Positions 3,070-36,726 of a DNA stretch of 64,000 bases are shown piece after piece (within the stretch, counting starts at the first letter, position 1; every line of letters begins with the position of its first letter). This stretch comes from Candidatus Woesebacteria bacterium RIFCSPLOWO2_01_FULL_39_23 (GTDB lineage Bacteria > Patescibacteriota > Microgenomatia > UBA8517): contig MGHG01000007.1 of assembly GCA_001793095.1 (NCBI GenBank), positions 1,306 to 65,305 of the forward strand, given 5' to 3'. The translations under genes and the position numbers were made by a program. The notes under the pieces were generated by a model. That model saw only the letters and a program-made list of their open reading frames with translations, did not search any database and was not told where the DNA came from.

Positions 3070-3591
3070 TTACTTTCCTTCAATGAATTGCACTAAGGCA
3101 TTTTTGTCAAGGTTATCAAATGTCTGAATTTTTCCCATCCTTGTTATCGCAATCTTTTTACTCATGTTTGAAAAAGGTGCAACATATACAAACTCGGAAT
3201 ATTTGTTTGCAATTTCTGCAAGTTTTTCTTTAAGACCGGGTTCGCATTCAAAGTCCTCGCAGTTGTAATTGATAATCACTCCAGGAGGTCCTTTTCCATC
3301 CGAATGCTCCAGCATGTGCTTTTGGACGGATAGGGACATTGGTTCATCCATAACGTGCGATGAGGGATTTTGTTCTATATGACCGGCCATGTCAGTAGGA
3401 GGTAAAATTTCTCTGTTTGTTGACCAATAATAAATGCCACCAATAAGGAGTACTGCAATAATTAAATCAATACTCCAATTACGAATTCTACCTATTAAAC
3501 TACTTTTTGATACATCTTGCGCTTTCAATGCTCTTATTTTTTTCTTGCGTTCTCTTTTTGGTAGTTCATTCCATTCTTCTGGATATTCCAT
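3070..3591 (-). CDS. Membrane-anchored extracytoplasmic protein with a His/Met-rich stretch and an NCEDFEC Cys pair (DUF3105-like)
   Basis: Lys-rich N-terminus, one TM, then HIEQNPSSHVMDEPM...KHMLEH and NYNCEDFECEP. The family assignment is tentative. Confidence 0.55.
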   Translation of the reverse strand: MEYPEEWNELPKRERKKKIRALKAQDVSKSSLIGRIRNWSIDLIIAVLLIGGIYYWSTNREILPPTDMAGHIEQNPSSHVMDEPMSLSVQKHMLEHSDGKGPPGVIINYNCEDFECEPGLKEKLAEIANKYSEFVYVAPFSNMSKKIAITRMGKIQTFDNLDKNALVQFIEGK

Positions 3592-3594
3592 ACT

Positions 3595-4116
3595 TCACCT
3601 CCTTCTACTTATTTTTATATTACATATTCCTAGAACCCTTTTAGACGTGTAGTAAAGCGTTAAAAGCATAATGATAATTGAAAGTAAGAGTATCATTTGT
3701 CTGTATTTCAGCAAAAGCAACACCCCTCCCAAACCTAAAAATCCAAAAATAGATCCCACACAGGAAGCGCAAGACGCAGTGGGACCAAAAATTGAACCCA
3801 ACATTCCAGACAAAGTACTAAAACTACTACGTCCAACTGTTGCTGTACTTAGAGAATTTTTTAACTCATTTCTAATAACAAAAATATTCATTGTTAAAGA
3901 GAGGGAGGTAAGGCTAGAGAGTAAGACAAGTAAAAACCAATCTTTCAGAGTAAAAATGGAAATTTGAAAAGAAAAAGTATTACCTGGAATTTGCCTGACA
4001 GGAATATAAATAAAAAACCAAAGAGCTAGAATTGACAAAGCAAAGAAGGTGATCAAAAAAATTTTCTCTTTAAAAACATTTTTCACCGCAAGAATAACCA
4101 ATTGAATATAATGCAT
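3595..4116 (-). CDS. Polytopic membrane protein with an intramembrane CASC (CxxC) motif
   Basis: Four or five hydrophobic segments and GPTASCASCVGSIFGFLGLGG. It sits 6 nt downstream of the DsbA-like gene. It is not recognisably DsbB or VKOR. Confidence 0.55.
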   Translation of the reverse strand: MHYIQLVILAVKNVFKEKIFLITFFALSILALWFFIYIPVRQIPGNTFSFQISIFTLKDWFLLVLLSSLTSLSLTMNIFVIRNELKNSLSTATVGRSSFSTLSGMLGSIFGPTASCASCVGSIFGFLGLGGVLLLLKYRQMILLLSIIIMLLTLYYTSKRVLGICNIKISRRR

Positions 4117-4122
4117 GTTTTA

Positions 4123-4905
4123 TCATGATTCTTTGAGCATGTTGTCTATCTCCGTTTTAAAGTTTTCGAATGGTAATGCTCCGGGAATTAATTTAGTTTT
4201 GCCTGTTTTTGTATCAAGCAGTATATTTCCGGGTGTTCCTGTTACACCGGCTTTTGCACCACTTTGGAAATCGCTTTCTACATGAGCTGCCGTCTTGCCA
4301 CTATCAAGACACGTCTTGAACGCACTTTGATTAAGGCCGACCTCACCTGCCAATTTGGGTAAATCATCCAGGTTCAAACCGTTATTGGAAGGGGTAACCT
4401 CAAAGATTTTATCGGTCAATTTCCAGAAACCATCATTACCCGCCAGTTCATATGCACACTCGGTAGCCTCAGCCTCTTTATCTGCTTTTTGATGGATTTG
4501 GTCTAATGGAAAATGCCTATAAACCCAAGCAACCTGACCTTTATATTCATCAACTATTTGTTTAGCAGTTGGATGAAATCTCTTGCAGAATGGGCATTCC
4601 AAGTCTGAATATTCAATTAGAAGCATCCTTGCATTCTTATCGCCTCTTACATGATCGTCGTTTCTCAACTTATCAACTTGGTCAGCATTACCGAAGGAAG
4701 GCTGAACTCCTCCTGCAGCTGGTTGTCCTCCTTGAGCACCTCCGGCGGCTCCAGCTTGTGTTCCGGCGATACGTGTGGTTCCACCACCTTCCAAGTTTTT
4801 GACTTTCTGCCAAAGCATTCCTACTGCAAAAGCAAGTCCAATTGACGCAACAAGAAGAATTGGAACTAATTTTTCAAGAAGATTACTCTTAGACTTTAAT
4901 ATCAT
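4123..4905 (-). CDS. DsbA-like thiol:disulfide oxidoreductase (thioredoxin fold, CPFC active site), membrane-anchored
   Basis: LIEYSDLECPFCKRFHP, with an N-terminal TM and a Gly/Ala/Gln-rich linker. The track start at 4932 is TTG. The ATG at 4905 (MILKSKSN...) is the more likely start. Confidence 0.8.
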   Translation of the reverse strand: MILKSKSNLLEKLVPILLVASIGLAFAVGMLWQKVKNLEGGGTTRIAGTQAGAAGGAQGGQPAAGGVQPSFGNADQVDKLRNDDHVRGDKNARMLLIEYSDLECPFCKRFHPTAKQIVDEYKGQVAWVYRHFPLDQIHQKADKEAEATECAYELAGNDGFWKLTDKIFEVTPSNNGLNLDDLPKLAGEVGLNQSAFKTCLDSGKTAAHVESDFQSGAKAGVTGTPGNILLDTKTGKTKLIPGALPFENFKTEIDNMLKES

Positions 4906-4912
4906 AGATATA

Positions 4913-4925
4913 CTACGAAGTGTAG
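4913..4925 (-). promoter_or_regulatory. Candidate BlaI/CopY-type operator copy (CTACGAAGTGTAG) just upstream of the dsbA-like start
   Basis: Same 13-mer (1 mismatch) as at 6250..6262. In both places TTCGTAGTATAT precedes the ATG on the coding strand. Confidence 0.45.
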
Positions 4926-4960
4926 TAGACAATAGTAAAGGTTGTCAATAAGTAAAAGGG

Positions 4961-25867: not shown

Positions 25868-26141
25868 TGGATGGGTAGATAGATTATTGTTGAGAATTAT
25901 TATGGGTACAATACAAGAAGCAAAAGACAGAATTAAATTAGCTTTGACTTTTCAAAATCCTGACAAGGATCGTATTTTAGCAATAAATAAAGCTAGGGAG
26001 ATTGGCCGATATAAATTAAGAAAAGGTGAGAAGGTGGGAACTGCTGTAGGGATTGAAGATAGAACGAGTGCTGTTTTAACTTTCGATAGTGGTAGTGTGT
26101 TAACCGCTAAGGTAAACACAGATGATACAACCTCTAGATAA
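25857..26141 (+). CDS. Hypothetical protein
   Basis: 94-aa ORF overlapping the serS end. The start may be the internal Met (MGTIQEAK...). Confidence 0.3.
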   Translation: MVVSGWVDRLLLRIIMGTIQEAKDRIKLALTFQNPDKDRILAINKAREIGRYKLRKGEKVGTAVGIEDRTSAVLTFDSGSVLTAKVNTDDTTSR

Positions 26142-26322
26142 TTGTGTATCCGGAGGTTTTGAGGGTCTGTTTTATTTTTTCCTCGTCAAACTCACCTTCT
26201 ACTTCGAGTGTTTCTTTTAGGTAGTTGCATGAGGCTTTGACCCCGATGTCTTCCAAATCAAGCTCGATCATCTTGGCGCAAGCTGTGCAATCCATGCCCT
26301 TTACTTTGTAACTTTTCTTCAT
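26134..26322 (-). CDS. copZ: Copper chaperone CopZ (HMA domain)
   Basis: 62 aa with a GMDCTAC MxCxxC motif and a ferredoxin-like fold pattern. Confidence 0.85.
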   Translation of the reverse strand: MKKSYKVKGMDCTACAKMIELDLEDIGVKASCNYLKETLEVEGEFDEEKIKQTLKTSGYTII

Positions 26323-26345
26323 AAGTTATAAGTTATTAGTTAGGC

Positions 26346-27356
26346 TCATTGAACTACGTTAAATGAGCCAGTATACATGCCCATTGAACAGGAAAAAGCC
26401 AGCCGGCCAGGTTTAGTCGGAGTAAATTCAATTTCTGTAACTCCAGTATCGGGGAGTATCTTTGAGATATTTAATGACGGAATAGTAAACGCCCGTGCAC
26501 AGCTGAAAACGTTATCGGTAATGAGTTTTAATTTAACTGGAACCCCGGCTTTTAAGGTACTGACATCTGGGGTATAACCTCTACCTGTGACATTAATAGT
26601 TGCTTGTTGGATACCCTGGGTGACTCCCGCGGATCTTGCAACCGGAACGAGCTTATCATTTCCACTGATAATAATCCAATAATTTCTGAGAGTATGAGGT
26701 GAACCGAAAAGACCCATTGCATTACTGAGTGCAAGTACACCGAATACAAAAATTACAATGGAGGAGATGTATGCGAAGGCTTTTTTCCGAAGTAAGCCCA
26801 GTGCAGCTACGCCAAGCGTAAAAAATACCGGGCTGGTTCCGAGGGTAAAAGCAAACATTGTTGCTCCTGCGTAGAGCGGATTTCCTGTTCCGAGTGCCAC
26901 GAGCATCATAGCTTGGGTGACGCCGCAGGGCATTAGAACTGTTAGTGCGCCCAGGATTGCCGGTGCAAAAAGAGACGTTTTCTTACTTTGGTTTCTGGCT
27001 AATCTTAATACAAACTTAGGTGGTTGAATGACGAAGTATCTGAAAAATGGATGCAAGCCCAGAAGTCTACCCGCTGTTCCGATTAGGAAGATAGCAATAA
27101 CAAGCTGCAATACAGCCAGAAACTTAGGGGAAGGAGTTAAGATGGAGCCTACTATTCCCAAAAGCACCCCAAGGATAGTGTAAGCCAAGATTTTACACCC
27201 TAAAAACATTGCAACAAACTTCCAGTTGCCACCTTTCACCTCTTTATTTTCTTTTTGTAGTGTTAATGTTGAGGTAAGAAGGCCACCCTGTACTGCAAGG
27301 CAGGAGATTCCTCCGGTTGTCAAGCCTGTAATAAAGGCCAGCCAGACGTTGTTCAT
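26346..27356 (-). CDS. Polytopic membrane permease-like protein with a C-terminal cupredoxin-like (Cupredoxin_1-type) domain
   Basis: Gly-rich N-terminal TM (FITGLTTGGISCLAVQGG) and 6-8 TMs. The C-terminus VTEIEFTPTKPGRLAFSCSMGMYTGSFNVVQ matches the F-x-C-x-M-x-M-Y-x-G tail of the 29976 protein. Confidence 0.6.
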   Translation of the reverse strand: MNNVWLAFITGLTTGGISCLAVQGGLLTSTLTLQKENKEVKGGNWKFVAMFLGCKILAYTILGVLLGIVGSILTPSPKFLAVLQLVIAIFLIGTAGRLLGLHPFFRYFVIQPPKFVLRLARNQSKKTSLFAPAILGALTVLMPCGVTQAMMLVALGTGNPLYAGATMFAFTLGTSPVFFTLGVAALGLLRKKAFAYISSIVIFVFGVLALSNAMGLFGSPHTLRNYWIIISGNDKLVPVARSAGVTQGIQQATINVTGRGYTPDVSTLKAGVPVKLKLITDNVFSCARAFTIPSLNISKILPDTGVTEIEFTPTKPGRLAFSCSMGMYTGSFNVVQ

Positions 27357-27419
27357 AGTGATAGATTTTATAGAAAATAGTGCTTATTGACAAGTCCTAA
27401 AGTTGAATGATAAAGTAAT

Positions 27420-27445
27420 ATACCCTATCCCCCGGGTAGGGATAT
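27420..27445. promoter_or_regulatory. CsoR-type operator: GC-rich pseudo-palindrome ATACCCTATCCCCCGGGTAGGGATAT
   Basis: It resembles known CsoR boxes (TACCC...GGGGGTA type). It sits between a TTGACA -35 (27387-92) and the csoR ATG, in the divergent intergenic region. Confidence 0.6.
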
Positions 27446-27449
27446 AAAA

Positions 27450-27719
27450 ATGGATGAATCTGCAAAAATCTCAGCTGCAAAACGACTGGCAATTATCAGG
27501 GGTCATCTCAATAAAGTAATAGACATGGTATCGGATGATGCTTATTGCCCTGATGTTATTCACCAATCGCAGGCGATTCAGGCAGCGTTAAAAAATGTTG
27601 ACGAAATAATCCTTCATGGCCATCTACATCATTGTGTACTCAAAGATATACACGAGAAGGGATCGAAAAAAGAGAAACTAATTAACGAAATACTTGACGT
27701 ATTCAGCAAACAAACATGA
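27450..27719 (+). CDS. csoR: CsoR-family Cu(I)-sensing transcriptional repressor
   Basis: YCPDV...HGHLHHC: the Cys, His(+25) and Cys(+29) spacing matches the CsoR Cu(I) triad. 89 aa, four-helix-bundle type. Confidence 0.85.
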   Translation: MDESAKISAAKRLAIIRGHLNKVIDMVSDDAYCPDVIHQSQAIQAALKNVDEIILHGHLHHCVLKDIHEKGSKKEKLINEILDVFSKQT

Positions 27720-28222
27720 GAGGCGAGTCAAAAATTCTTGTCGCAGCTATAATTTTTTCGGTGCTTTTAATTATTGGGTTTGTTGCACTTAGTGGAAAAT
27801 CATCTTCGGAAGAAATTAAACCTATGGGAGATGTAAGTGGTATTTCCGTCGAACCCTCTAATTACAATTTGGGTGATGTTCCAATAAAAGGAGGAACCGT
27901 TACGAAGGAGTATAAAATTAAAAATACTACAAATAATACAATTAAACTTAAAAAATTGGCAACGTCGTGTATGTGTACAAAAGCTAAGGTAAAAATTGGA
28001 GATAAGGAAACTAGGTTGTTCGGTATGGAGGGTATGGGTGATAAAAATCCTTCTGTTAACTTGGAAGTTGCTCCAAATGAAGAAATGTTGGTTACCGCGA
28101 TTTTCGATCCTGCTGCTCACGGACCTCAAGGAGTAGGACCTTTTGATAGAAGCGTGTTCTTAACATTTTCTGATCCATCTGGGGTAAGGGAGCTCAAATT
28201 TAGCGGGAAAGTAGTCAGCTAA
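27716..28222 (+). CDS. Membrane-anchored beta-sandwich protein with a CxC motif (DUF1573-like)
   Basis: N-terminal TM. VPIKGGTVTKEYKIKNTTNNTIKLKKLATSCMCTKA resembles the DUF1573 S-C-x-C-T core. Tentative. Confidence 0.5.
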   Translation: MRGESKILVAAIIFSVLLIIGFVALSGKSSSEEIKPMGDVSGISVEPSNYNLGDVPIKGGTVTKEYKIKNTTNNTIKLKKLATSCMCTKAKVKIGDKETRLFGMEGMGDKNPSVNLEVAPNEEMLVTAIFDPAAHGPQGVGPFDRSVFLTFSDPSGVRELKFSGKVVS

Positions 28223-28746
28223 TGAATAAGATAGTTTTTATAACGTTTATAATAATTATAAGTATTGTATTATTTGGATTTCCTAGGGAAATCCAGGCGC
28301 ACTGTCCGCTTTGCGTGGCCGGCGCTGGAGTTGGATTAACGCTATCAAGACTGTTGGGAATTGACGATAGCATTACCGGAGTTTGGTTGGGGGCTTTTTT
28401 GGGGGCGATGGCGTTTTGGACACAACGATTACTTGCCTCAAAAAATAAAAACTTTTCTTCTACTTTTTTTGGGATTTTTATTTACTTGGGAATTTTTGCA
28501 GCGACTATATGGTCTTTTTATAAATATAATCTGATTCTAAAACACGGAGATATTTTTGGATTAGATAAATTGACTTTCGGAATGGTAATAGGCGGATCCT
28601 TATTTTATATAGTTGATATCGTCAATGGCATTATAATCATGAGACACGGTAGGTCTTTTTTCCCATATCAAAGGTTAGTTACAGGACTTGGAAGTATGTT
28701 TTTATTAAGTGGAGCAGTCTTTATCTTAATTAACTACTATATATGA
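28222..28746 (+). CDS. Polytopic membrane protein with an HCPLC (CxxC) motif
   Basis: 174 aa. Signal/TM, then AHCPLCVAGAGVG at a membrane boundary, then three more TMs. Confidence 0.5.
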   Translation: MNKIVFITFIIIISIVLFGFPREIQAHCPLCVAGAGVGLTLSRLLGIDDSITGVWLGAFLGAMAFWTQRLLASKNKNFSSTFFGIFIYLGIFAATIWSFYKYNLILKHGDIFGLDKLTFGMVIGGSLFYIVDIVNGIIIMRHGRSFFPYQRLVTGLGSMFLLSGAVFILINYYI

Positions 28747-29948
28747 AAAAACTTAAGAAGAAACAAAAATTACTGTTGAGTAAATTTCTAACCTCTTCTT
28801 TTTTGATATTGTTTGGTTTTATTTTGAGTTTTACGTTTTTCAAAACCAATGTCCAAACTTTAAATTTCCTTCCGTCTATTTCAAATAGTGTGGCAGCAAT
28901 TAACTCTAAAGATTTAATTAAGAAATTAGAGAATAAGAATTTTACGCTAATAAATGTTCATACGCCGTATGAGGGTGAGATTGAAAAAACGGATATCTTT
29001 ATAAATTACGATGAAATTTTGGCTAGTAAGGATAAACTTCCCCAAGATAAGAATGCCGAAATAGTACTCTACTGTAAAACTGGAAGAATGAGCACAGAGG
29101 CTGCAGCAACTCTCCTGAATTTAGGTTATACAGATGTTAAACACCTGAACGGTGGAATGGACGCGTGGAAGAAAGAGGGCGGGAGCCTAATTGATTTGTC
29201 GAAACTTCCAGAACAAGTACTTCCACAGGAGGGTTTTACACTTCCTGTTTCTTGGGGTAGTTTAGGTCCGAGATTAATCCAACTTGGTGTAATCGATCAG
29301 GCAAAGTTTGAAAAGGTTGTTAAGATGGATAATACACAAAAGGAAATTTTGACCAAAGGATCGGATTCGCTAATTACAATTAATACTCAGAATAGTCAGT
29401 TTGTTGTTGATATGCTTTGGGCTGTTGGGCTCGGACAAAAGAGTCTTGTTTATGACGAAGGGCCGATGGGAAAAGAGTATAAAAATAAAGCCGGTAACTT
29501 TGCCTCAACCGGAGGGTGGAGCTTAGCGAAAGGCAGCGCGATGGCTCATTATAATAAACACGACCTGATCTCACTAACAGCTGAGCAGCATAAAAGAGTG
29601 ATGGATATCGCAGGACATGTTTATAGACCGTGTTGCGGTAATCACACGGCATTCCCCGATTGCAACCATGGTATGGCAGCCTTGGCAGCAATTGAAATGA
29701 TGGTATCCTTAAATATGAGCGATGAAAGTATTTATAAGAGCGTACTCGAACTGAATTCATTTTGGTTTGGGAGTACGTATATGACTACTGCAACTTATTT
29801 TGCCAGACAGGGTATATCCTGGGACAAGGTGGATGCTAAAGAGGTGTTAGGTGCCAAATATTCTTCAGGTCAGGGAGCAGCTGAAATAGCTAAGAAAGTT
29901 AATCCCCTGCCTTATGAAAGTAAATCAGGTGGTGGTTGCGGTGCTTAA
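28743..29948 (+). CDS. Membrane-anchored rhodanese (sulfurtransferase) fused to an unrecognised Cys/His-rich C-terminal domain
   Basis: Rhodanese with active-site loop LYCKTGRMS and ...LNGGMDAW. The C-domain carries PCCGNHTAFPDCNHGM and a terminal GGGCGA. Confidence 0.7.
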   Translation: MKKLKKKQKLLLSKFLTSSFLILFGFILSFTFFKTNVQTLNFLPSISNSVAAINSKDLIKKLENKNFTLINVHTPYEGEIEKTDIFINYDEILASKDKLPQDKNAEIVLYCKTGRMSTEAAATLLNLGYTDVKHLNGGMDAWKKEGGSLIDLSKLPEQVLPQEGFTLPVSWGSLGPRLIQLGVIDQAKFEKVVKMDNTQKEILTKGSDSLITINTQNSQFVVDMLWAVGLGQKSLVYDEGPMGKEYKNKAGNFASTGGWSLAKGSAMAHYNKHDLISLTAEQHKRVMDIAGHVYRPCCGNHTAFPDCNHGMAALAAIEMMVSLNMSDESIYKSVLELNSFWFGSTYMTTATYFARQGISWDKVDAKEVLGAKYSSGQGAAEIAKKVNPLPYESKSGGGCGA

Positions 29949-29975
29949 TTAAGTAAATTAAGTATAAAATCGTAT

Positions 29976-30332
29976 ATGGATAAACTAGTTGTTACTATTG
30001 GTGGATTGTCGGTTTTAAGTTTTATTTATTGGTTTTTCTTTGGAAAATCCAAGGATGAAATTGTTGAGGTCAAAGATAATATTGATGTTATTGTTGATGG
30101 GGGTTATAAGCCAGCCGCAATAAAAATAAAAAAAGGAAAAACAGCGACACTAAGAATAAAAAGACTGGATACAAACAGTTGTTTAGAAGAGATAATAATA
30201 CCTGACTTCAAAGTTAAAGAATATTTACCGCTAAATAAAGAGGTTGAGATTAAGATTAGCCCTAATAAAAACGGAGAGTTTAATTTCCACTGTGGAATGA
30301 ATATGTATCATGGAAAGATCATTGTCGAATAA
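29976..30332 (+). CDS. Small membrane-anchored cupredoxin-like (Cupredoxin_1/EfeO-like) protein
   Basis: TM, then a beta-rich domain ending [18 protein letters not shown]. It overlaps the copA start by 23 nt. Confidence 0.65.
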
Positions 30333-32625
30333 TAATCAAGCTAGTCAAAAATTGTCATTTCCAATAATCGGGATGCACTGCGCGTCATGCGCCAGACTTA
30401 TAGAGAGGCAGCTCGTGCGAACACCCGGTGTTTTAAGCGCTGCAGTCAATTATGGGAGTGAAACGGCTTCGGTTGAATACACATCCGACGTAAAGGAAGA
30501 AGATTTAGCTAAAGCTGTAGAAGGAGCGGGTTATAGAGCGATATTAGACCAAAGGACAAAGGACAGAGGACAAAGGACATCGGATGAAATCAAAGAGGAG
30601 GCGAAGAAGAAAGAGATTAAGGAGTTAAAGCTGAAAGTTATAGTCTCTTCAATACTTTCGGTCCTTATATTCGCCGGAAGTTTTCCGGAATGGATTACTT
30701 TTGTACCCAAAATATTGAGTAATAATATTGTTCTATTTATACTCGCTACCCCCGTTCAGTTTTGGGCAGGATGGCAATTCTATTTAGCCACGAGATCAGG
30801 CTTGAAAAATAGAACTGCAAGTATGGATACGTTAATTGCAATCGGGACTAGTGCAGCCTATGGCTATTCCGTTTGGTCAATGATCTTTGGAGGAGACAAA
30901 TATTTTGACACTGCGGTAATAATTATTACCTTAATACTTCTTGGAAGATATCTTGAAGCCAGAGCAAAACTGCATACAAGCGATGCCATAAGGAAACTTT
31001 TAGCCCTTCAGGCGAAAACCGCACGCGTCATACGGGGGTCGACTGAAGTTGATATTCCTATCGAAGAAGTTAAAGTCGGAGATATAATCCGTGTAAGACC
31101 GGGTGAAAAAATTCCGGTTGACGGTGTTATAACGGAAGGAGTGAGCTCAATTGACGAATCTATGGTAACGGGTGAATCTATCCCTGTTGATAAGACTGTA
31201 GGCAATTCCGTTATCGGTGCAACAATCAATAAATCCGGAACCTTTTTATTTAAAGCTACAAAAATCGGCTCGGATACTATGCTCGCCAGAGTAGTAAAAA
31301 TGGTTGCCGAAGCGCAAAGTTCAAAAGCCCCTATTCAAAGACTCGCTGATGTCGTTTCGTCGTATTTCGTCCCGATAGTTTTAATTCTGGCAGTTCTGAC
31401 ATTTGTTATATGGTTTGACTTCAGTCCCATATCTTCCGAAGCATTCAAGCACGCATTTACGAATATGGTAGCGGTTCTTATCATCGCCTGTCCTTGTGCG
31501 CTCGGATTGGCAACGCCCACAGCAATAATGGTAGGTACAGGGAAAGGCGCTGAGCACGGAATACTGATAAAGGATGCAGAAAGTCTGGAAATCGCAAATA
31601 AAATAAAAACTATCGTTTTTGACAAGACGGGGACATTAACGGAAGGAAAACCAACCGTTACGGACGTTATTTCAAGTCAAAAGTTAAATGTCAAAAGTCA
31701 AAAGTTGTTACAGCTTGCTGCATCTCTTGAGCAAGGTTCAGAGCATTCGTTGGCGGAAACAATAATTAAAAAAACTCATAGCTTAAAACTTAAAACTCAA
31801 AAAGTAACTAATTTCAAAGCAATACACGGGATGGGAATCGAAGGGGAAATTGAAGGGAAAAAGTATATTTTTGGGAATAGAGCATTGATGGACAAAGAGA
31901 AGATAAATTATAAAAATCAGGAGTCAAGAATTATGAATTTAGAAGAAGAAGGTAAAACTGTAATGTTATTAGCCCTTCGACAAGCTCAGGGTAAACTATT
32001 AGGAATCATCGCCGTTGCTGACACTTTGAAGGCAAGTGCAAAAGATGCTGTAGCGATGTTACAAAAGAGAAAAATAGATGTTTGGATGGTGACTGGGGAT
32101 AATGAGCGGACGGCAAAAGCCATTGCTCGTGAAGCGGGTATTAACAATGTTTTAGCCGGAGTACTTCCTAATGAGAAGGCAAGTAAAGTAAATGAATTAC
32201 GAATAAAGAATAATGTATTAAGCAATTGGGATAATTCAAAATTCATTAAACATAATACTGAACCCGTCATCGCGTTCGTTGGTGACGGTATTAATGACGC
32301 ACCTGCACTTGCAGCGGCGGATGTGGGAATTGCAATGGGCAGCGGGACAGATATTGCAATGGAGTCGGCTGGAATTACTCTCTTGAACCGTGATTTAAAT
32401 AGTGTGGTTTCGGCAATTGAGTTAAGCAAAAAAACTCTCAATGTGATAAAACAAAATCTTTTTTGGGCCTTCGGATACAATATTGTTTTAATACCCGTTG
32501 CAATGGGGGTTTTATACCCCTTTTTCGGTTGGCTTCTTAACCCTGCAATAGCAGCATTTGCTATGGCTGCCAGCTCCATTTCCGTCGTCGGGAATTCCCT
32601 TCGGCTGAAAAGTGTTAGACTTTGA
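30310..32625 (+). CDS. copA: Copper-translocating P1B-type ATPase
   Basis: N-terminal [16 protein letters not shown] motif [19 protein letters not shown], and the GDGINDAP hinge. 771 aa. Confidence 0.95.
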
Positions 32626-33728: not shown

Positions 33729-33983
33729 ATGGCTGAAAGAGAAAAAACACCAGAGGAAAAGAGAGCTATTTCTAAAGTTTTGAGGATTGTCAGAGGAAGT
33801 ATGGTTTTTGGACCAGATCAAAAACCAGTTACTTGTCCGCGGTGCTTTAACAGAATAGGTATACTTAATAATGTCGGGATACCTGAGGGAACTTCGCTTG
33901 GCCCGATGGGTTGTGTGGGAGTAGAGGATGAAGAGTGTAAATTGCGCGAAATGTTATTTGAGCTTTATAGAAACAAACCTTAA
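33729..33983 (+). CDS. Hypothetical protein
   Basis: 84-aa ORF with a CPRC...C Cys pattern and no clear family. Confidence 0.3.
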   Translation: MAEREKTPEEKRAISKVLRIVRGSMVFGPDQKPVTCPRCFNRIGILNNVGIPEGTSLGPMGCVGVEDEECKLREMLFELYRNKP

Positions 33984-34460: not shown

Positions 34461-35468
34461 TTATATCCGGATTAACTTTTCCAACCAGGCTAAGTTTTGA
34501 CTTTTACTTTCCTTCCCACGATAGCTTTGTTCAAGTAAGTGTAGGCGCGTCCACCATAAATCTTCCCAGATATAATGAACTGCCAATTGTTTATATTTAC
34601 CGAATTTCTCAAAGTGTTTCAATAGTTTTTCGACAGATACAGGATTTTCAGGATCTTGGTCAAAAAACACTTTGGAATATATTTTTTGTTCCCATGGCGA
34701 TATATGGTTAAAGAAATCCCAATGATGAAATACGTCAAACAAGAGATACCAAACTGTAGCCGGCCCTACCCCGTAAAGTTTAAGAAGTTCTGTCATCTGT
34801 GTTTGCCTATCTTTCTTCCTTAAGATCATCTCGTCCATTAAACCTTGAGCAAAATAATCATCAATTTTCTTAATTGATTTGGCGCGATAACCGACTTTTA
34901 AGTTCCTTAATTCTTGCTCTGTCACGTTAGTAAGACTTCCTCCTTTCCAGAAACACCAAAGTTCTTTTCCGTCATATTCTAATTTTGTTCCGTAATTTTC
35001 CAATAATGCCCTGAACATCTGAACAGACCTTTTAACTGTTGCGTTTTGAAGAACTATTCCAATTATTAAATATTCATATAATGAGCTTGGATGTCCGGGT
35101 CGCATTCCATGCCACTTCTTAATTATCGGAGCCAACACTTTGTCATTTTTGAATGATTTGTAAAAATCTGTTAAGTCCAAGTCGAGGTTATACCTGAAGC
35201 GAATTTCTTTGATTAACGAGTCAATTGTTTCCTGCTTTGGTTTGCGGTCTGTCCAAATATCGATTTTTATTTTTGGTTTTTCTCTTGTTCCAATATTTAC
35301 AAACTTTAATCCGTATGGTTTACCGCCATATAGCCAGGTTTGCCACCTTGTCCCTGGTTCCCAATAATTATCACCGCTCGTAAAGTGATCTGGTTTATGA
35401 AAAGTAGCATCAAAATTAAAAGGTGAAGTTGGAGTAATTTCTATAGTAGCTACTTTTATTAGTTTCAT
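34461..35468 (-). CDS. HhH-GPD superfamily DNA glycosylase (AlkA/Ogg-like)
   Basis: LYGVGPATVWYLLFDVF helix-hairpin-helix GPD motif. The start is set at MKLIKV (ATG 35468), 1 nt after the rarA stop. The track start at 35546 would overlap rarA. Confidence 0.65.
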   Translation of the reverse strand: MKLIKVATIEITPTSPFNFDATFHKPDHFTSGDNYWEPGTRWQTWLYGGKPYGLKFVNIGTREKPKIKIDIWTDRKPKQETIDSLIKEIRFRYNLDLDLTDFYKSFKNDKVLAPIIKKWHGMRPGHPSSLYEYLIIGIVLQNATVKRSVQMFRALLENYGTKLEYDGKELWCFWKGGSLTNVTEQELRNLKVGYRAKSIKKIDDYFAQGLMDEMILRKKDRQTQMTELLKLYGVGPATVWYLLFDVFHHWDFFNHISPWEQKIYSKVFFDQDPENPVSVEKLLKHFEKFGKYKQLAVHYIWEDLWWTRLHLLEQSYRGKESKSQNLAWLEKLIRI

Positions 35469-35469
35469 A

Positions 35470-36726
35470 CTATGAGCGTCGGTAATATTTTTTATTTTTA
35501 ATTTTTTCAGGTAATGACGAACCTTTGTCATATTTCTCGTACCCACTTCCGTATCCTATTTCCTTCATAAGTTTTGTAACGGGATTTCGGATTTTTAAGG
35601 GAACCGGAAGATTGCCGTGTTTTTTAACATCCTCTAAGGCTGCTATATATGCGTTATATGCTGAGCGATCCTTTTTAGCTAAAGCGAGATAAACAACTCC
35701 ATGTGCTAAATTTTCCTGGCACTCAGGGAAGCCTATTGTTTCGCAGGCTTTGAAAACTTCATTAGCAATAACCAAAGCTGTAGGTTGGGCCATGCCAATA
35801 TCTTCCGAAGCAAAAACTACCATTCGCCTTGCAATATATAGAGGATCTTGTCCTGCAGCAACCATCCGTGCCAAATAATAGAGCGCCGCATCAACATCGC
35901 TTGCCCGCATACTTTTAATAAATGCTGATATTATGTTGTAAAAATCTTCTCCCTGTTTATCGAAAGTGAGTTGTCTTCGCTGTAGGGCAGATTCGATGTC
36001 TTTTAAACTGATTGCACCCCCGAGGTGTTTGAATTTTTCACCTCGGGGGTGGTTTGGCGCCGTTAAATTAACTGCGATTTCCAGGACATTCAGCAATACC
36101 CTCGCGTCACCATTACTTGCCGACAGTAAAAAGCTTAATGCTTTGGGTTCAATCTTAACTTGTAATTCTTTCAAGCCTCTTTTTATAATTTTTTTTAAGT
36201 CGTTTTCACTTAGTTGGTTCAGTACAACAACGCGGCACCGTGACATGAGAGGTCCAATTACTTCGAACGAGGGATTTTCGGTTGTTGCACCGATTAGGAC
36301 AATATCTCCTTTTTCAACATGGGGTAGTAGTTTATCCTGCTGGGCTTTGTTAAAGCGGTGAATTTCATCAATGAATACGATAGGAGCGGAATTCTGAATA
36401 CTGTATTGTGAATTATGAATTATGGGTTGTTGCTGACTCTTAGTGCTTGATACTTTGTTCATAATAGTGTTTATTTCTTTAATAGAGGTGTTGACGGCGG
36501 AAAACTCATAAAACTCGCGATTTAATTCATTAGCAATAATCCGTGCAAGTGTAGTTTTTCCTGATCCTGGCGGTCCCCAAAAAATGAGTGAAGGAATGAA
36601 GTTTTTACCTCCGGGATTATTCAGTAACTTGGAAATAAATCCATTTTTACCGACCAAGTGTTCCTGTCCGACGAATTCTACAAGTTTTCTCGGCCTTAAT
36701 TTTTCGGGTAACGGAATATTTTGCAT
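35470..36726 (-). CDS. rarA: Replication-associated recombination protein A (RarA/MgsA AAA+ ATPase)
   Basis: Walker [10 protein letters not shown], Walker [10 protein letters not shown], sensor and a C-terminal MgsA helical domain. It has a Ser/Gln-rich insertion. Confidence 0.9.

Follow-up and report, generated by a model that had tools for sequence, protein, structure and literature searches.

The analysis described here concerns a window of 64,000 nt from the genome of Candidatus Woesebacteria bacterium RIFCSPLOWO2_01_FULL_39_23 (Patescibacteria), in which eight genes at positions 26134-32625 are arranged around the regulatory gene csoR. With a probability of roughly 55%, this locus represents a CsoR-repressed copper-tolerance divergon that includes a copper-induced extracytoplasmic module, either a thiol relay or a system for handling Cu(I), which would resemble the Scs and DsbD systems in function while being non-homologous to them. 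As judged from their deduced sequences, CsoR, CopA, CupA and CopZ clearly make up a standard core of Cu(I) sensing, chaperoning and export. The putative module is encoded by a cassette of three genes between csoR and cupA that specify a DUF1573 protein, a membrane protein with the motif HCPLC and a rhodanese fused to a C-terminal domain without family assignment, which is referred to as CCxN.

Domain assignments were made by Pfam and NCBIfam scans of the translated open reading frames (ORFs) of the window, and phmmer, hhalign and Foldseek were applied to the harder cases. The ORFs confirmed all eight genes, their order and the Cys/Met motifs that had been described in an earlier reading of the same DNA, hereafter called the original prediction. 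The conservation of the locus was examined with the CCxN domain as anchor: in 80 species-level loci that contain this domain, ORFs were called and searched with the proteins of the window. Since many of these loci are short contigs, the resulting neighbour counts represent lower bounds.

Copper sensing, promoter structure and copper export

The plus-strand arm of the divergon starts with csoR (27450-27719), the product of which matches PF02583 (Trns_repr_metal) with 74.9 bits against a cut-off of 22.8. The residues C33, H58 and C62 align with C36, H61 and C65 of the CsoR protein of M. tuberculosis (2HH7), and Y32 precedes the first cysteine. Cu(I)-sensing CsoR proteins are characterized by the fingerprint x-C-H-C, whereas the persulfide sensor CstR displays x-C-N-C (PMC11672702). 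With His58 present, the regulator falls into the Cu(I) type of CsoR and is thus a predicted copper sensor. The hint at persulfide sensing given in the original prediction is not sustained by this fingerprint; an identity as CstR is ruled out by His58, and the neighbouring genes are copper genes.

Downstream of csoR, the plus strand carries the genes of the DUF1573 protein (27716-28222), the HCPLC membrane protein (28222-28746) and the rhodanese-CCxN fusion (28743-29948), followed by cupA (29976-30332) and copA (30310-32625). Neighbouring genes of this arm overlap by 4, 1, 4 and 23 nt and are separated by a single gap of 27 nt, and a terminator scan of the arm detected no credible internal terminator. 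Owing to the overlapping or nearly abutting genes and the lack of such a terminator, the plus arm can be regarded as one transcription unit. Translation of the additional genes is coupled to that of csoR and copA, these genes are conserved beside copA or csoR across Patescibacteria, and none of the domain scans reassigned them to housekeeping families, in agreement with their earlier classification as components of a copper operon. The minus-strand arm comprises a permease gene (26346-27356) and copZ (26134-26322).

The intergenic region of 93 bp between csoR and the permease gene contains a divergent pair of sigma-70-like promoters (27365-27416, both strands) that was detected by a consensus scan and is arranged back to back with overlapping -35 hexamers. 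The plus-strand promoter consists of TTGACA (27387-27392) and TAAAGT (27411-27416) spaced by 18 nt, and the minus-strand promoter of TTGTCA (27393-27388) and TAAAAT (27370-27365) spaced by 17 nt; both are putative promoters recognized by their pattern only, with 10 of 12 consensus matches each. The seven bases at 27387-27393 (TTGACAA, as read on either strand) are common to the divergent -35 hexamers, so that the arms may compete for RNA polymerase.

A predicted CsoR operator of 19 nt, TATCCCCCGGGTAGGGATA, is located on the plus strand at 27426-27444; it closely follows the -10 hexamer of this strand on its 3' side, and 5 nt separate it from the csoR start codon ATG. This box follows the pattern TATCCC-N7-GGGATA with a G/C-tract core and was spotted by eye and by a pattern search; the inverted-repeat finder missed it. 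With one mismatch allowed, the pattern matches once in the window, as opposed to 0.11 expected occurrences. The same box, or a TACCCC-N3-5-GGGGTA variant, was found directly upstream of 27 of the 46 csoR genes in the related loci, and the box itself precedes csoR in at least 13 of them. Because the gene set recurs in related genomes and the CsoR box is unique in the window, the arrangement is not attributable to chance.

In two loci the cassette lies apart from csoR. One of them (L052) shows TTGACA, a spacer of 17 nt, TATACT and TATCCCCATAGGGGGGATA ahead of the ATG of the DUF1573 gene, and the other (L026) shows TTGACA and TATCCTCCTGGAGGGGATA ahead of the ATG. Of all computational evidence for a CsoR-mediated response of the cassette to copper, the presence of an own promoter together with a CsoR box in front of these separated cassettes is the strongest.

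A CsoR box between the divergent genes was observed in at least eight loci, and in the window it covers the start region of the plus strand only. Control of the permease-copZ arm by CsoR is made plausible by the conserved divergent pairing, in which the genes of both arms flank the box, and co-regulation of this arm is regarded as likely. The assumption of a CsoR-controlled divergon made in the original prediction was thus substantiated as far as a csoR-headed divergon with a box at the csoR promoter is concerned, while control of the minus arm remains at the level of plausibility.

The copA gene specifies a protein that matches TIGR01511 with 629.8 bits against a cut-off of 397 and the Pfam families E1-E2_ATPase, Hydrolase and HMA. 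Its translation contains the N-terminal HMA motif GMHCASC as well as the motifs CPC, DKTGT, YN and MxxSS; according to these features CopA is a predicted P1B-1 Cu(I)-exporting ATPase. The small cupredoxin of 118 aa encoded directly upstream matches PF13473 with 85.1 bits and, in its residues 35-118, the CupA protein of S. pneumoniae (4F2E/2MRY; phmmer, E = 3.7e-20). Its residues C69, C106, M108 and M110 align with the ligands C74, C111, M113 and M115 of the streptococcal protein (PMC5646241), and residues 4-22 form an N-terminal hydrophobic membrane helix. The protein is therefore clearly a CupA homologue and a predicted Cu(I) chaperone. CupA has been described as limited to a few streptococci (PMC5646241). 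Homologues were detected in 20 of the 80 patescibacterial loci, with the ligands checked residue by residue for the protein of the window, and these homologues are paired with CsoR and an HMA-type N-terminus of CopA, not with CopY and a cupredoxin-type CopA domain.

On the minus strand, copZ encodes an HMA-type Cu(I) chaperone of 62 aa with the motif GMDCTAC that matches PF00403 with 38 bits against a cut-off of 24.8; its best score against the NCBIfam CopZ equivalogs is 28.4 bits at a cut-off of 85. The permease is a polytopic protein of the LysE superfamily, composed of a DsbD_2 domain (PF13386, 91.9 bits against 24.9) and a Cupredoxin_1 tail (PF13473, 44.6 bits), with conserved cysteines in the motifs 'GGISCLAVQGG' and 'MPCGVTQ'. 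The cupredoxin-like nature of the tail (C...CSMGM), as originally proposed, was borne out by matches to CupA (4F2E, E = 3e-7) and to CopA's metal-binding domain (4F2F). Its 5445 homologues are named only 'sulfite exporter TauE/SafE family', and in some Saccharibacteria loci (L051, L053) the permease is fused to an HMA domain. Proteins of the HMA/DsbD_2 type (COG2836) are members of an earlier predicted CsoR meta-regulon (PMC4938975). The link of the permease to copper is accordingly not new, and its candidate roles are the transfer of electrons or of Cu(I) across the membrane. The original prediction had counted only csoR, copZ and copA as textbook genes and had attributed Cys or Met motifs of unknown role to five further proteins. 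While the motifs themselves were confirmed, the small cupredoxin is a CupA homologue, the permease tail is CupA-like and the HMA/DsbD_2 combination belongs to the predicted meta-regulon, so the notion of an unknown role no longer applies to the small cupredoxin and the permease tail.

Composition and conservation of the cassette

The first gene of the cassette encodes a signal-anchored, Ig-like protein that matches PF07610 (DUF1573) with 43.1 bits against a cut-off of 26.1 and carries the motif TSCMCT. Among 55 orthologues the residues S84, C85, C87 and M104 are invariant, T83 and T88 are conserved in 96-98% and P132 and G139 in 98% of the sequences, and H135 belongs to a 'DPxAHG' motif that the listed variants retain. 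This conservation of Cys, Met and His residues appears typical of Cu(I) sites and makes the protein a candidate for extracytoplasmic Cu(I) binding or for a redox shuttle. A comparison with the OS_HP2 (seleno)protein family NF041425 yielded 23.2 bits against a cut-off of 100 and identified the protein as a non-member and a distant relative only, with its Cys pair at the position where redox residues are expected.

The second gene specifies a membrane protein of 174 aa with a signal-like N-terminus that ends at an AxA-type site and is followed by the motif H-C-P-L-C, which holds the only two cysteines of the protein, and by four hydrophobic helices. The sequence A-H-C-P-L-C is present in the window and in 16 orthologues, with one exception that has H as the preceding residue. 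No match to Pfam, NCBIfam or PDB entries was obtained for this protein. The source names shown for its 416 homologues are all 'hypothetical protein', and the named organisms belong to Woesebacteria, Curtissbacteria and unclassified Patescibacteria. A second HCPLC paralogue occurs in other Woesebacteria, with Val in place of His ('A-V-C-P-[IV]-C-T-V-A-V-G-A-G-L-G'; L006 6597-7154, L007 6294-6848, L029 868-1401 and L024 7837-8415, all on the minus strand). It is located near the divergent arm and 3' of copZ where copZ was seen; the window is devoid of this paralogue, and copZ is followed by the gene of seryl-tRNA synthetase (SerRS).

In 66 of the 80 loci, the position between the DUF1573 and CCxN genes holds a single Cys-pair membrane protein, which is of one of three kinds; these kinds were never found together. 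A protein of about 278 aa with the motifs 'FAPCC...SSCCTP' (PCC...CCxP) takes this slot in 37 loci, a CcdA-like protein of about 260 aa with 'DSINPC...FPCTGGP' in 14 loci and the HCPLC protein in 15 loci that essentially represent the Woesebacteria clade. The PCC...CCxP and CcdA-like proteins are mutually homologous (hhalign 95%, E = 3.7e-8), and the latter shows a weak DsbD_TM/SfLAP match. An assignment of the HCPLC protein to the CcdA/DsbD homologues was rejected on the basis of hhalign values of 0.1-1.5% against the CcdA-like, PCC and DsbD_2 proteins, its single CPxC motif and the missing Pfam match. It was likewise rejected as a relative of the CPxC multi-transmembrane domains that are fused to CCxN in other proteins, since hhalign reached at most 12% and the HCPLC hidden Markov model retrieved none of them. 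Because the genomic slot is shared and homology is not detectable, the HCPLC protein may work like CcdA but is not a member of that family.

The third gene encodes a fusion protein of 401 aa with thousands of close homologues in Patescibacteria; its sequence is 100% identical to that of a database entry from Candidatus Woesebacteria bacterium RIFCSPLOWO2_01_FULL_39_23 named 'hypothetical protein'. Its N-terminal part (28743-29204) consists of a lysine-rich N-terminus, a transmembrane (TM) segment and a rhodanese domain at residues ~50-150 (PF00581, 46.9 bits against a cut-off of 22.2). The invariant loop C111-K-T-G-R-M-S is of the catalytic type, and C111 is invariant among 25 homologues. Most hits obtained by Foldseek for the full-length model were rhodaneses, comprising GlpE and other single-domain proteins, and a function as sulfurtransferase is predicted accordingly.

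The remaining part of the fusion protein (29205-29948) is the CCxN domain of about 250 aa, defined by a conserved set of Cys/His motifs that includes CCGNHTAFPDCNHG. The invariant residues are R-P-C297-C298-x-N-x-T-x-F-P-D-C307-N-H309-G-M-A-A-L-A, the sequence ASTGGW and a Gly-rich tail ending C399-G-A. Diverse members of the family retain C-C, D-C-x-H-G and the near-terminal cysteine, and the Gly-rich tail with a terminal Cys was found in 136 of 150 family representatives. The conserved residues form an obvious candidate for a Cys3His(+Cys) metal or redox site. The domain alone yielded no Pfam or NCBIfam match at E values up to 10, a scan of 45 diverse members revealed occasional fused domains only, and the family profile matched PDB sequences solely with the rhodanese half. 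Membership of the C-terminal domain in PCYCGC (PF13798) was dismissed for want of a Pfam match. The AlphaFold2 model of CCxN alone is of high confidence (pLDDT 92.6, pTM 0.91), and a Foldseek search with this model detected no PDB fold better than E = 3.4. A partial Foldseek match to CcmH (2HL7) covers 58 residues with a probability of 0.38 and is too weak to be used.

The CCxN family comprises 472 clusters at 50% identity and is present in at least 597 species genomes, including those of DPANN archaea. The commonest architecture is TM-CCxN; others are TM-rhodanese-CCxN, a lipoprotein-rhodanese-CCxN version with lipobox in DPANN (P0135, P0161), HMA-TM-CCxN (P0140), a multi-TM 'CPxCG' domain fused to CCxN and single fusions to Cupredoxin_1 or plastocyanin-type domains. 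The TM- and lipoprotein-anchored architectures place CCxN and the rhodanese outside the cell, and the fusions to HMA and cupredoxin-type domains tie the family to copper. Cluster entries of CCxN-only members bear only the name 'hypothetical protein', and the few source names shown for other members are 'rhodanese-like domain-containing protein' or similarly generic ones. A description of the cassette was not found in the literature on DUF1573 and copper, CsoR of Patescibacteria, DUF3105, or rhodanese and CsoR.

Among the 80 loci, copA was detected as a neighbour in 57 cases (52 within 3 kb) and csoR in 45, and 65 loci contain at least one of these two genes; by our own estimate for 1-Mb genomes, such a co-location would occur by chance in about 1-2% of the cases. 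In 60 loci a DUF1573 gene was detected within 3 kb of the CCxN gene, without exception in the same orientation. The permease with DsbD_2 and cupredoxin domains is a neighbour in 18 and copZ in 15 loci. The gene set hence recurs beside copA or csoR in related genomes, as a check of orthologue neighbourhoods suggested with the original prediction had called for. A rhodanese was detected in only 32 of the 80 loci: 24 times as a fusion with CCxN, five times as a fusion with a DUF1573-like domain and three times as a separate protein. In view of this limited occurrence, sulfur transfer is considered accessory, and the DUF1573 protein, CCxN and a membrane protein with a Cys pair appear to form the conserved core.

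Genes of other thiol proteins recur in the neighbourhoods as well, namely DsbA-like (15 loci), VKOR-motif (11), thioredoxin-reductase-like (6) and thioredoxin-like (5) ORFs, and a DUF3105-like family was present in 10 of the 80 loci, with one member confirmed by Pfam. In the window, a DsbA-like thioredoxin gene (4123-4932; Thioredoxin_4/DSBA) lies beside one or two DUF3105-like ORFs (3070-3591 with a weak PF11303 match and 3595-4116 without family) on the minus strand at 3070-4932, 22 kb from the cassette. An apparently cytoplasmic family of about 178 aa ('DLSTEEDL..NLISLEEHFFFT') that ends with C-C-x-E/K and lacks a Pfam match is encoded beside the cassette in Parcubacteria-type loci (L039 6239-6775, L074 905-1420 and 18 others). 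Further recurrent genes specify a membrane protein of about 96 aa in 25 loci, which probably corresponds to the DUF5676 gene of L001 and L003, and a 'HSCP...CPP' membrane protein of about 147 aa in 17 loci.

An ENA metagenome scaffold of high GC content (L086, 3205-12928) carries a CCxN member from outside the candidate phyla radiation (CPR) with an N-terminal multi-TM domain (P0195), next to genes for an HMA protein, two DsbD_TM-like proteins and the CcmF/CcmH components of cytochrome c maturation. This neighbourhood hints that CCxN may also serve reductive envelope pathways beyond copper defence. Several contigs (L005, L010-L014, L016, L021 and others) are titled 'uncultured Gammaproteobacteria bacterium' (TPA_asm metagenome-assembled genomes); they contain genes typical of Patescibacteria and proteins 56-65% identical to Woesebacteria- or Gottesmanbacteria-like ones, and a taxonomic mislabel is probable. 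The operon of the window is flanked by housekeeping genes encoding SerRS, a LysRS-like protein, GreA, a Na/Ca exchanger and an ABC ATPase. Beyond the exchanger gene, an ORF of 84 aa with CPRC and further cysteines (33729-33983, plus strand) and an ORF of 361 aa (34461-35546, minus strand) are without Pfam match, and no link to the operon was found for either of them.

Proposed function and alternative explanations

In the favoured model, Cu(I) would release CsoR from the box overlapping the beginning of the csoR operon, leading to the expression of CopA and CupA. CopA would pump Cu(I), CupA would act as a membrane-tethered cupredoxin chaperone and the divergent arm would provide CopZ and the DsbD_2 protein. 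The three-gene cassette with its outward-facing products would be switched on together with the pump. The Cys-pair membrane protein, which belongs to the CcdA superfamily in most other lineages and is represented by HCPLC here, would hold the surface cysteines in a reduced state, and the DUF1573 protein would serve as a Cu(I) chaperone, as a shuttle comparable to the Ig-fold N-terminal domain found in DsbD/ScsB, or as both. CCxN with its swinging terminal cysteine would be the end site, either binding the Cu(I) expelled by CopA or repairing surface thiols oxidised by copper, while the rhodanese as a lineage-specific add-on might supply sulfane sulfur to these cysteines or remove it. Members of the CcdA superfamily are established carriers of reducing equivalents to extracytoplasmic Cys proteins, and the Ig-fold N-terminal domain of DsbD/ScsB is a precedent for an Ig-like Cys-pair shuttle. 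Copper-linked thiol relays of the envelope are known from the Scs/CueP systems, in which ScsC binds Cu(I) and relies on the DsbD-like ScsB protein (PMC10907172, PMC8900818, PMC5524982), and sequestration of Cu(I) at the surface is known from CopL (PMC11672702). In view of the role of CcdA, the Ig-fold precedent of DsbD/ScsB and the precedent of Scs/CueP, the thiol module is the most economical model; in function it would parallel the Scs/CueP, CopL and CopG systems of the envelope while being built from unrelated proteins. The mutually exclusive Cys-pair membrane proteins, the weak DsbD_TM/SfLAP match of the CcdA-like one and the recurrent DsbA-like, VKOR-motif, thioredoxin-reductase-like and thioredoxin-like neighbours also speak for a thiol relay.

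Several points weigh against this interpretation. Everything beyond the identity of the domains is deduced from context, and the cassette does not encode a thioredoxin-fold partner. The HCPLC protein is without detectable homology to CcdA/DsbD (hhalign 0.1-12%), and its one Cys pair lies on the predicted outer face, so that an electron route from the cytoplasm is not evident. The CCxN fold has no structural relative, and for this reason its chemistry is not readable from homology. About 15 of the 80 loci, many of them on short contigs, have neither copA nor csoR in reach. Finally, the CsoR box lies upstream of the minus-strand -35 hexamer that was predicted, at a distance of about 30 nt, and repression of permease-copZ is not evident.

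The rhodanese allows the operon to be viewed as a coupling of copper export with sulfur chemistry, the theme that the original prediction had placed at its centre. A surface rhodanese would pass sulfane sulfur, for instance from thiosulfate, via the C-terminal cysteine to the CC/C/H site, the exported Cu(I) would be trapped by the persulfide or sulfide formed there, in a Cu-S cluster or as insoluble copper sulfide, and the membrane Cys protein would recycle the disulfides. The invariant cysteine in a PspE-like CxxGRxS loop fused directly to CCxN speaks for this explanation, as do the lineages with a neighbouring rhodanese gene or a fusion of rhodanese and DUF1573-like domains, the frequency of the Gly-rich tail with its terminal Cys and the occurrence of the rhodanese-CCxN fusion in DPANN archaea. 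However, the rhodanese is extracytoplasmic and was detected in a minority of the loci only, the conserved core works without it and the regulator is of the Cu(I) type and not CstR. Moreover, sulfide-oxidation or persulfide-dioxygenase genes are not present at the locus and no sulfur donor was identified, and a central role of sulfur chemistry is thus unlikely. A related and bolder proposal, which we regard as rather speculative, is that the DUF1573 protein with its CxC motif, the Cys-pair protein and CCxN, joined by the rhodanese in Microgenomates and DPANN, constitute an undescribed and very widespread copper-defence machine of ultra-small bacteria and archaea, in which a new fold and sulfane-sulfur or thiolate chemistry would capture pump-exported Cu(I) at the surface as a protein-bound Cu-S cluster or copper sulfide. 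If true, this capture would represent a detoxification route without counterpart in model organisms.

The thiolates of the cassette might alternatively hand over Cu(I) itself, and not electrons, across or along the membrane, with the DUF1573 protein (CxC) in the role of MerP, HCPLC or PCC...CCxP in that of MerT/MerF or of a second Cu(I) channel, and CCxN as acceptor or donor. The 'CCxP' and 'CPxC' motifs start Gly/Ala-rich helices and presumably resemble the CC motifs of MerT/MerF and the CPC motif of P1B ATPases; metal-ion transporters are among the members of the LysE/DsbD superfamily, the DsbD_2 protein of the divergent arm carries a CupA-like domain, or HMA in some lineages, and one CCxN protein possesses a cytoplasmic HMA domain. 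Such a metal relay is nevertheless quite unlikely, as CopA already exports Cu(I) and copper import under a Cu-derepressed promoter would be counter-intuitive. Furthermore, the CcdA-like alternative found in 14 loci has the classic electron-transfer layout with one Cys per repeat, and Mer homology was not obtained in any scan. It is very improbable that the cassette is a general disulfide or surface-maturation system that is clustered with copper genes as a passenger, without direct copper chemistry. The recurrence of DsbA-like, VKOR-motif, thioredoxin-like and thioredoxin-reductase-like ORFs, the CCxN loci devoid of copA and csoR and the non-CPR member adjoining CcmF/CcmH and DsbD_TM genes (L086) are in line with this explanation. 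It is opposed by the embedding of the cassette between csoR and cupA-copA with overlapping codons, the dedicated CsoR boxes of separated cassettes, the family members fused to HMA and cupredoxin domains and the Cu(I)-site-like conservation of the DUF1573 protein.

To our knowledge, extracytoplasmic copper handling is well described only in Gram-negative models (CueO, CusF, Scs/CueP, CopG) and in a few Firmicutes (CopL). The thiol or Cu(I)-handling module favoured here would represent a different solution to surface copper, shared by no fewer than 597 species of Patescibacteria and DPANN. These organisms are not culturable alone, and their surface biology is little known. The locus defines an unannotated domain family with a confidently predicted fold, a candidate Cys3His(+Cys) site and no structural relative, and it suggests a likely function for a copper-associated subfamily of DUF1573 proteins. 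The three Cys-pair membrane proteins provide a clear case of non-orthologous displacement, and the CupA data indicate that this type of chaperone is not a peculiarity of streptococci and is paired here with CsoR instead of CopY. Nothing established is overturned by these data, which offer a testable entry into the surface copper chemistry of Patescibacteria and DPANN.

Relation to known copper and sulfur systems

The cst operon of S. aureus (CstA/CstB) likewise combines a CsoR-family regulator with a rhodanese protein. In the window, however, the regulator contains His and not Asn, the rhodanese is extracytoplasmic, partners of the SQR, persulfide dioxygenase and TauE type are missing, and the copper pump and chaperones are part of the operon. 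Small extracytoplasmic proteins that hold Cu(I) by Cys, Met and His residues and are encoded together with exporters are CopG (DUF411, CxCC cluster), CusF and PCuAC. CopL (DUF1541) is also extracytoplasmic and encoded with a copper exporter, and its Cys, Met and His residues hold Cu(I) (PMC11672702). A relation in sequence or fold to CopL, CopG, CusF or PCuAC was not detected, and the motif sets of CCxN and of the DUF1573 protein (TSCxCT/M/H) are distinct from those of the four proteins.

With the Scs/CueP systems of Salmonella, Proteus and Caulobacter the cassette shares the copper-linked combination of a Cys-pair membrane protein and extracytoplasmic Cys proteins (PMC10907172, PMC8900818, PMC5524982), and its membrane partner is CcdA/DsbD-like in most lineages. 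In contrast to Scs, the cassette lacks a thioredoxin-fold protein, HCPLC is not DsbD-like, the extracytoplasmic components are a DUF1573 protein and a new fold, and the regulator is CsoR and not CpxR or CueR. Owing to the absence of a thioredoxin domain from the cassette and the deviating nature of HCPLC, the relation to Scs is one of functional analogy only.

The copY-cupA-copA operon of S. pneumoniae has a membrane-anchored cupredoxin chaperone encoded directly 5' of copA with the same ligand positions C...CxMxM (PMC5646241), whereas the operon of the window uses CsoR, an HMA-type metal-binding domain of CopA and a second CupA-like domain on the DsbD_2 protein. The CsoR-copZA operons of M. 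tuberculosis and B. subtilis share the C-H-C type of CsoR, a pseudo-palindromic operator with G/C tracts at the csoR promoter, a P1B-1 CopA and an HMA-type CopZ. Compared with these operons, the window contains five additional genes, the CopZ gene is located on the divergent arm behind the DsbD_2 permease gene, and CupA and CopZ are both present as chaperones. Every homology-based membership test placed the cassette outside Scs, CopL and CopG, and the operon that surrounds it is assigned by its predicted products to the CsoR-CopA class with a CupA chaperone.

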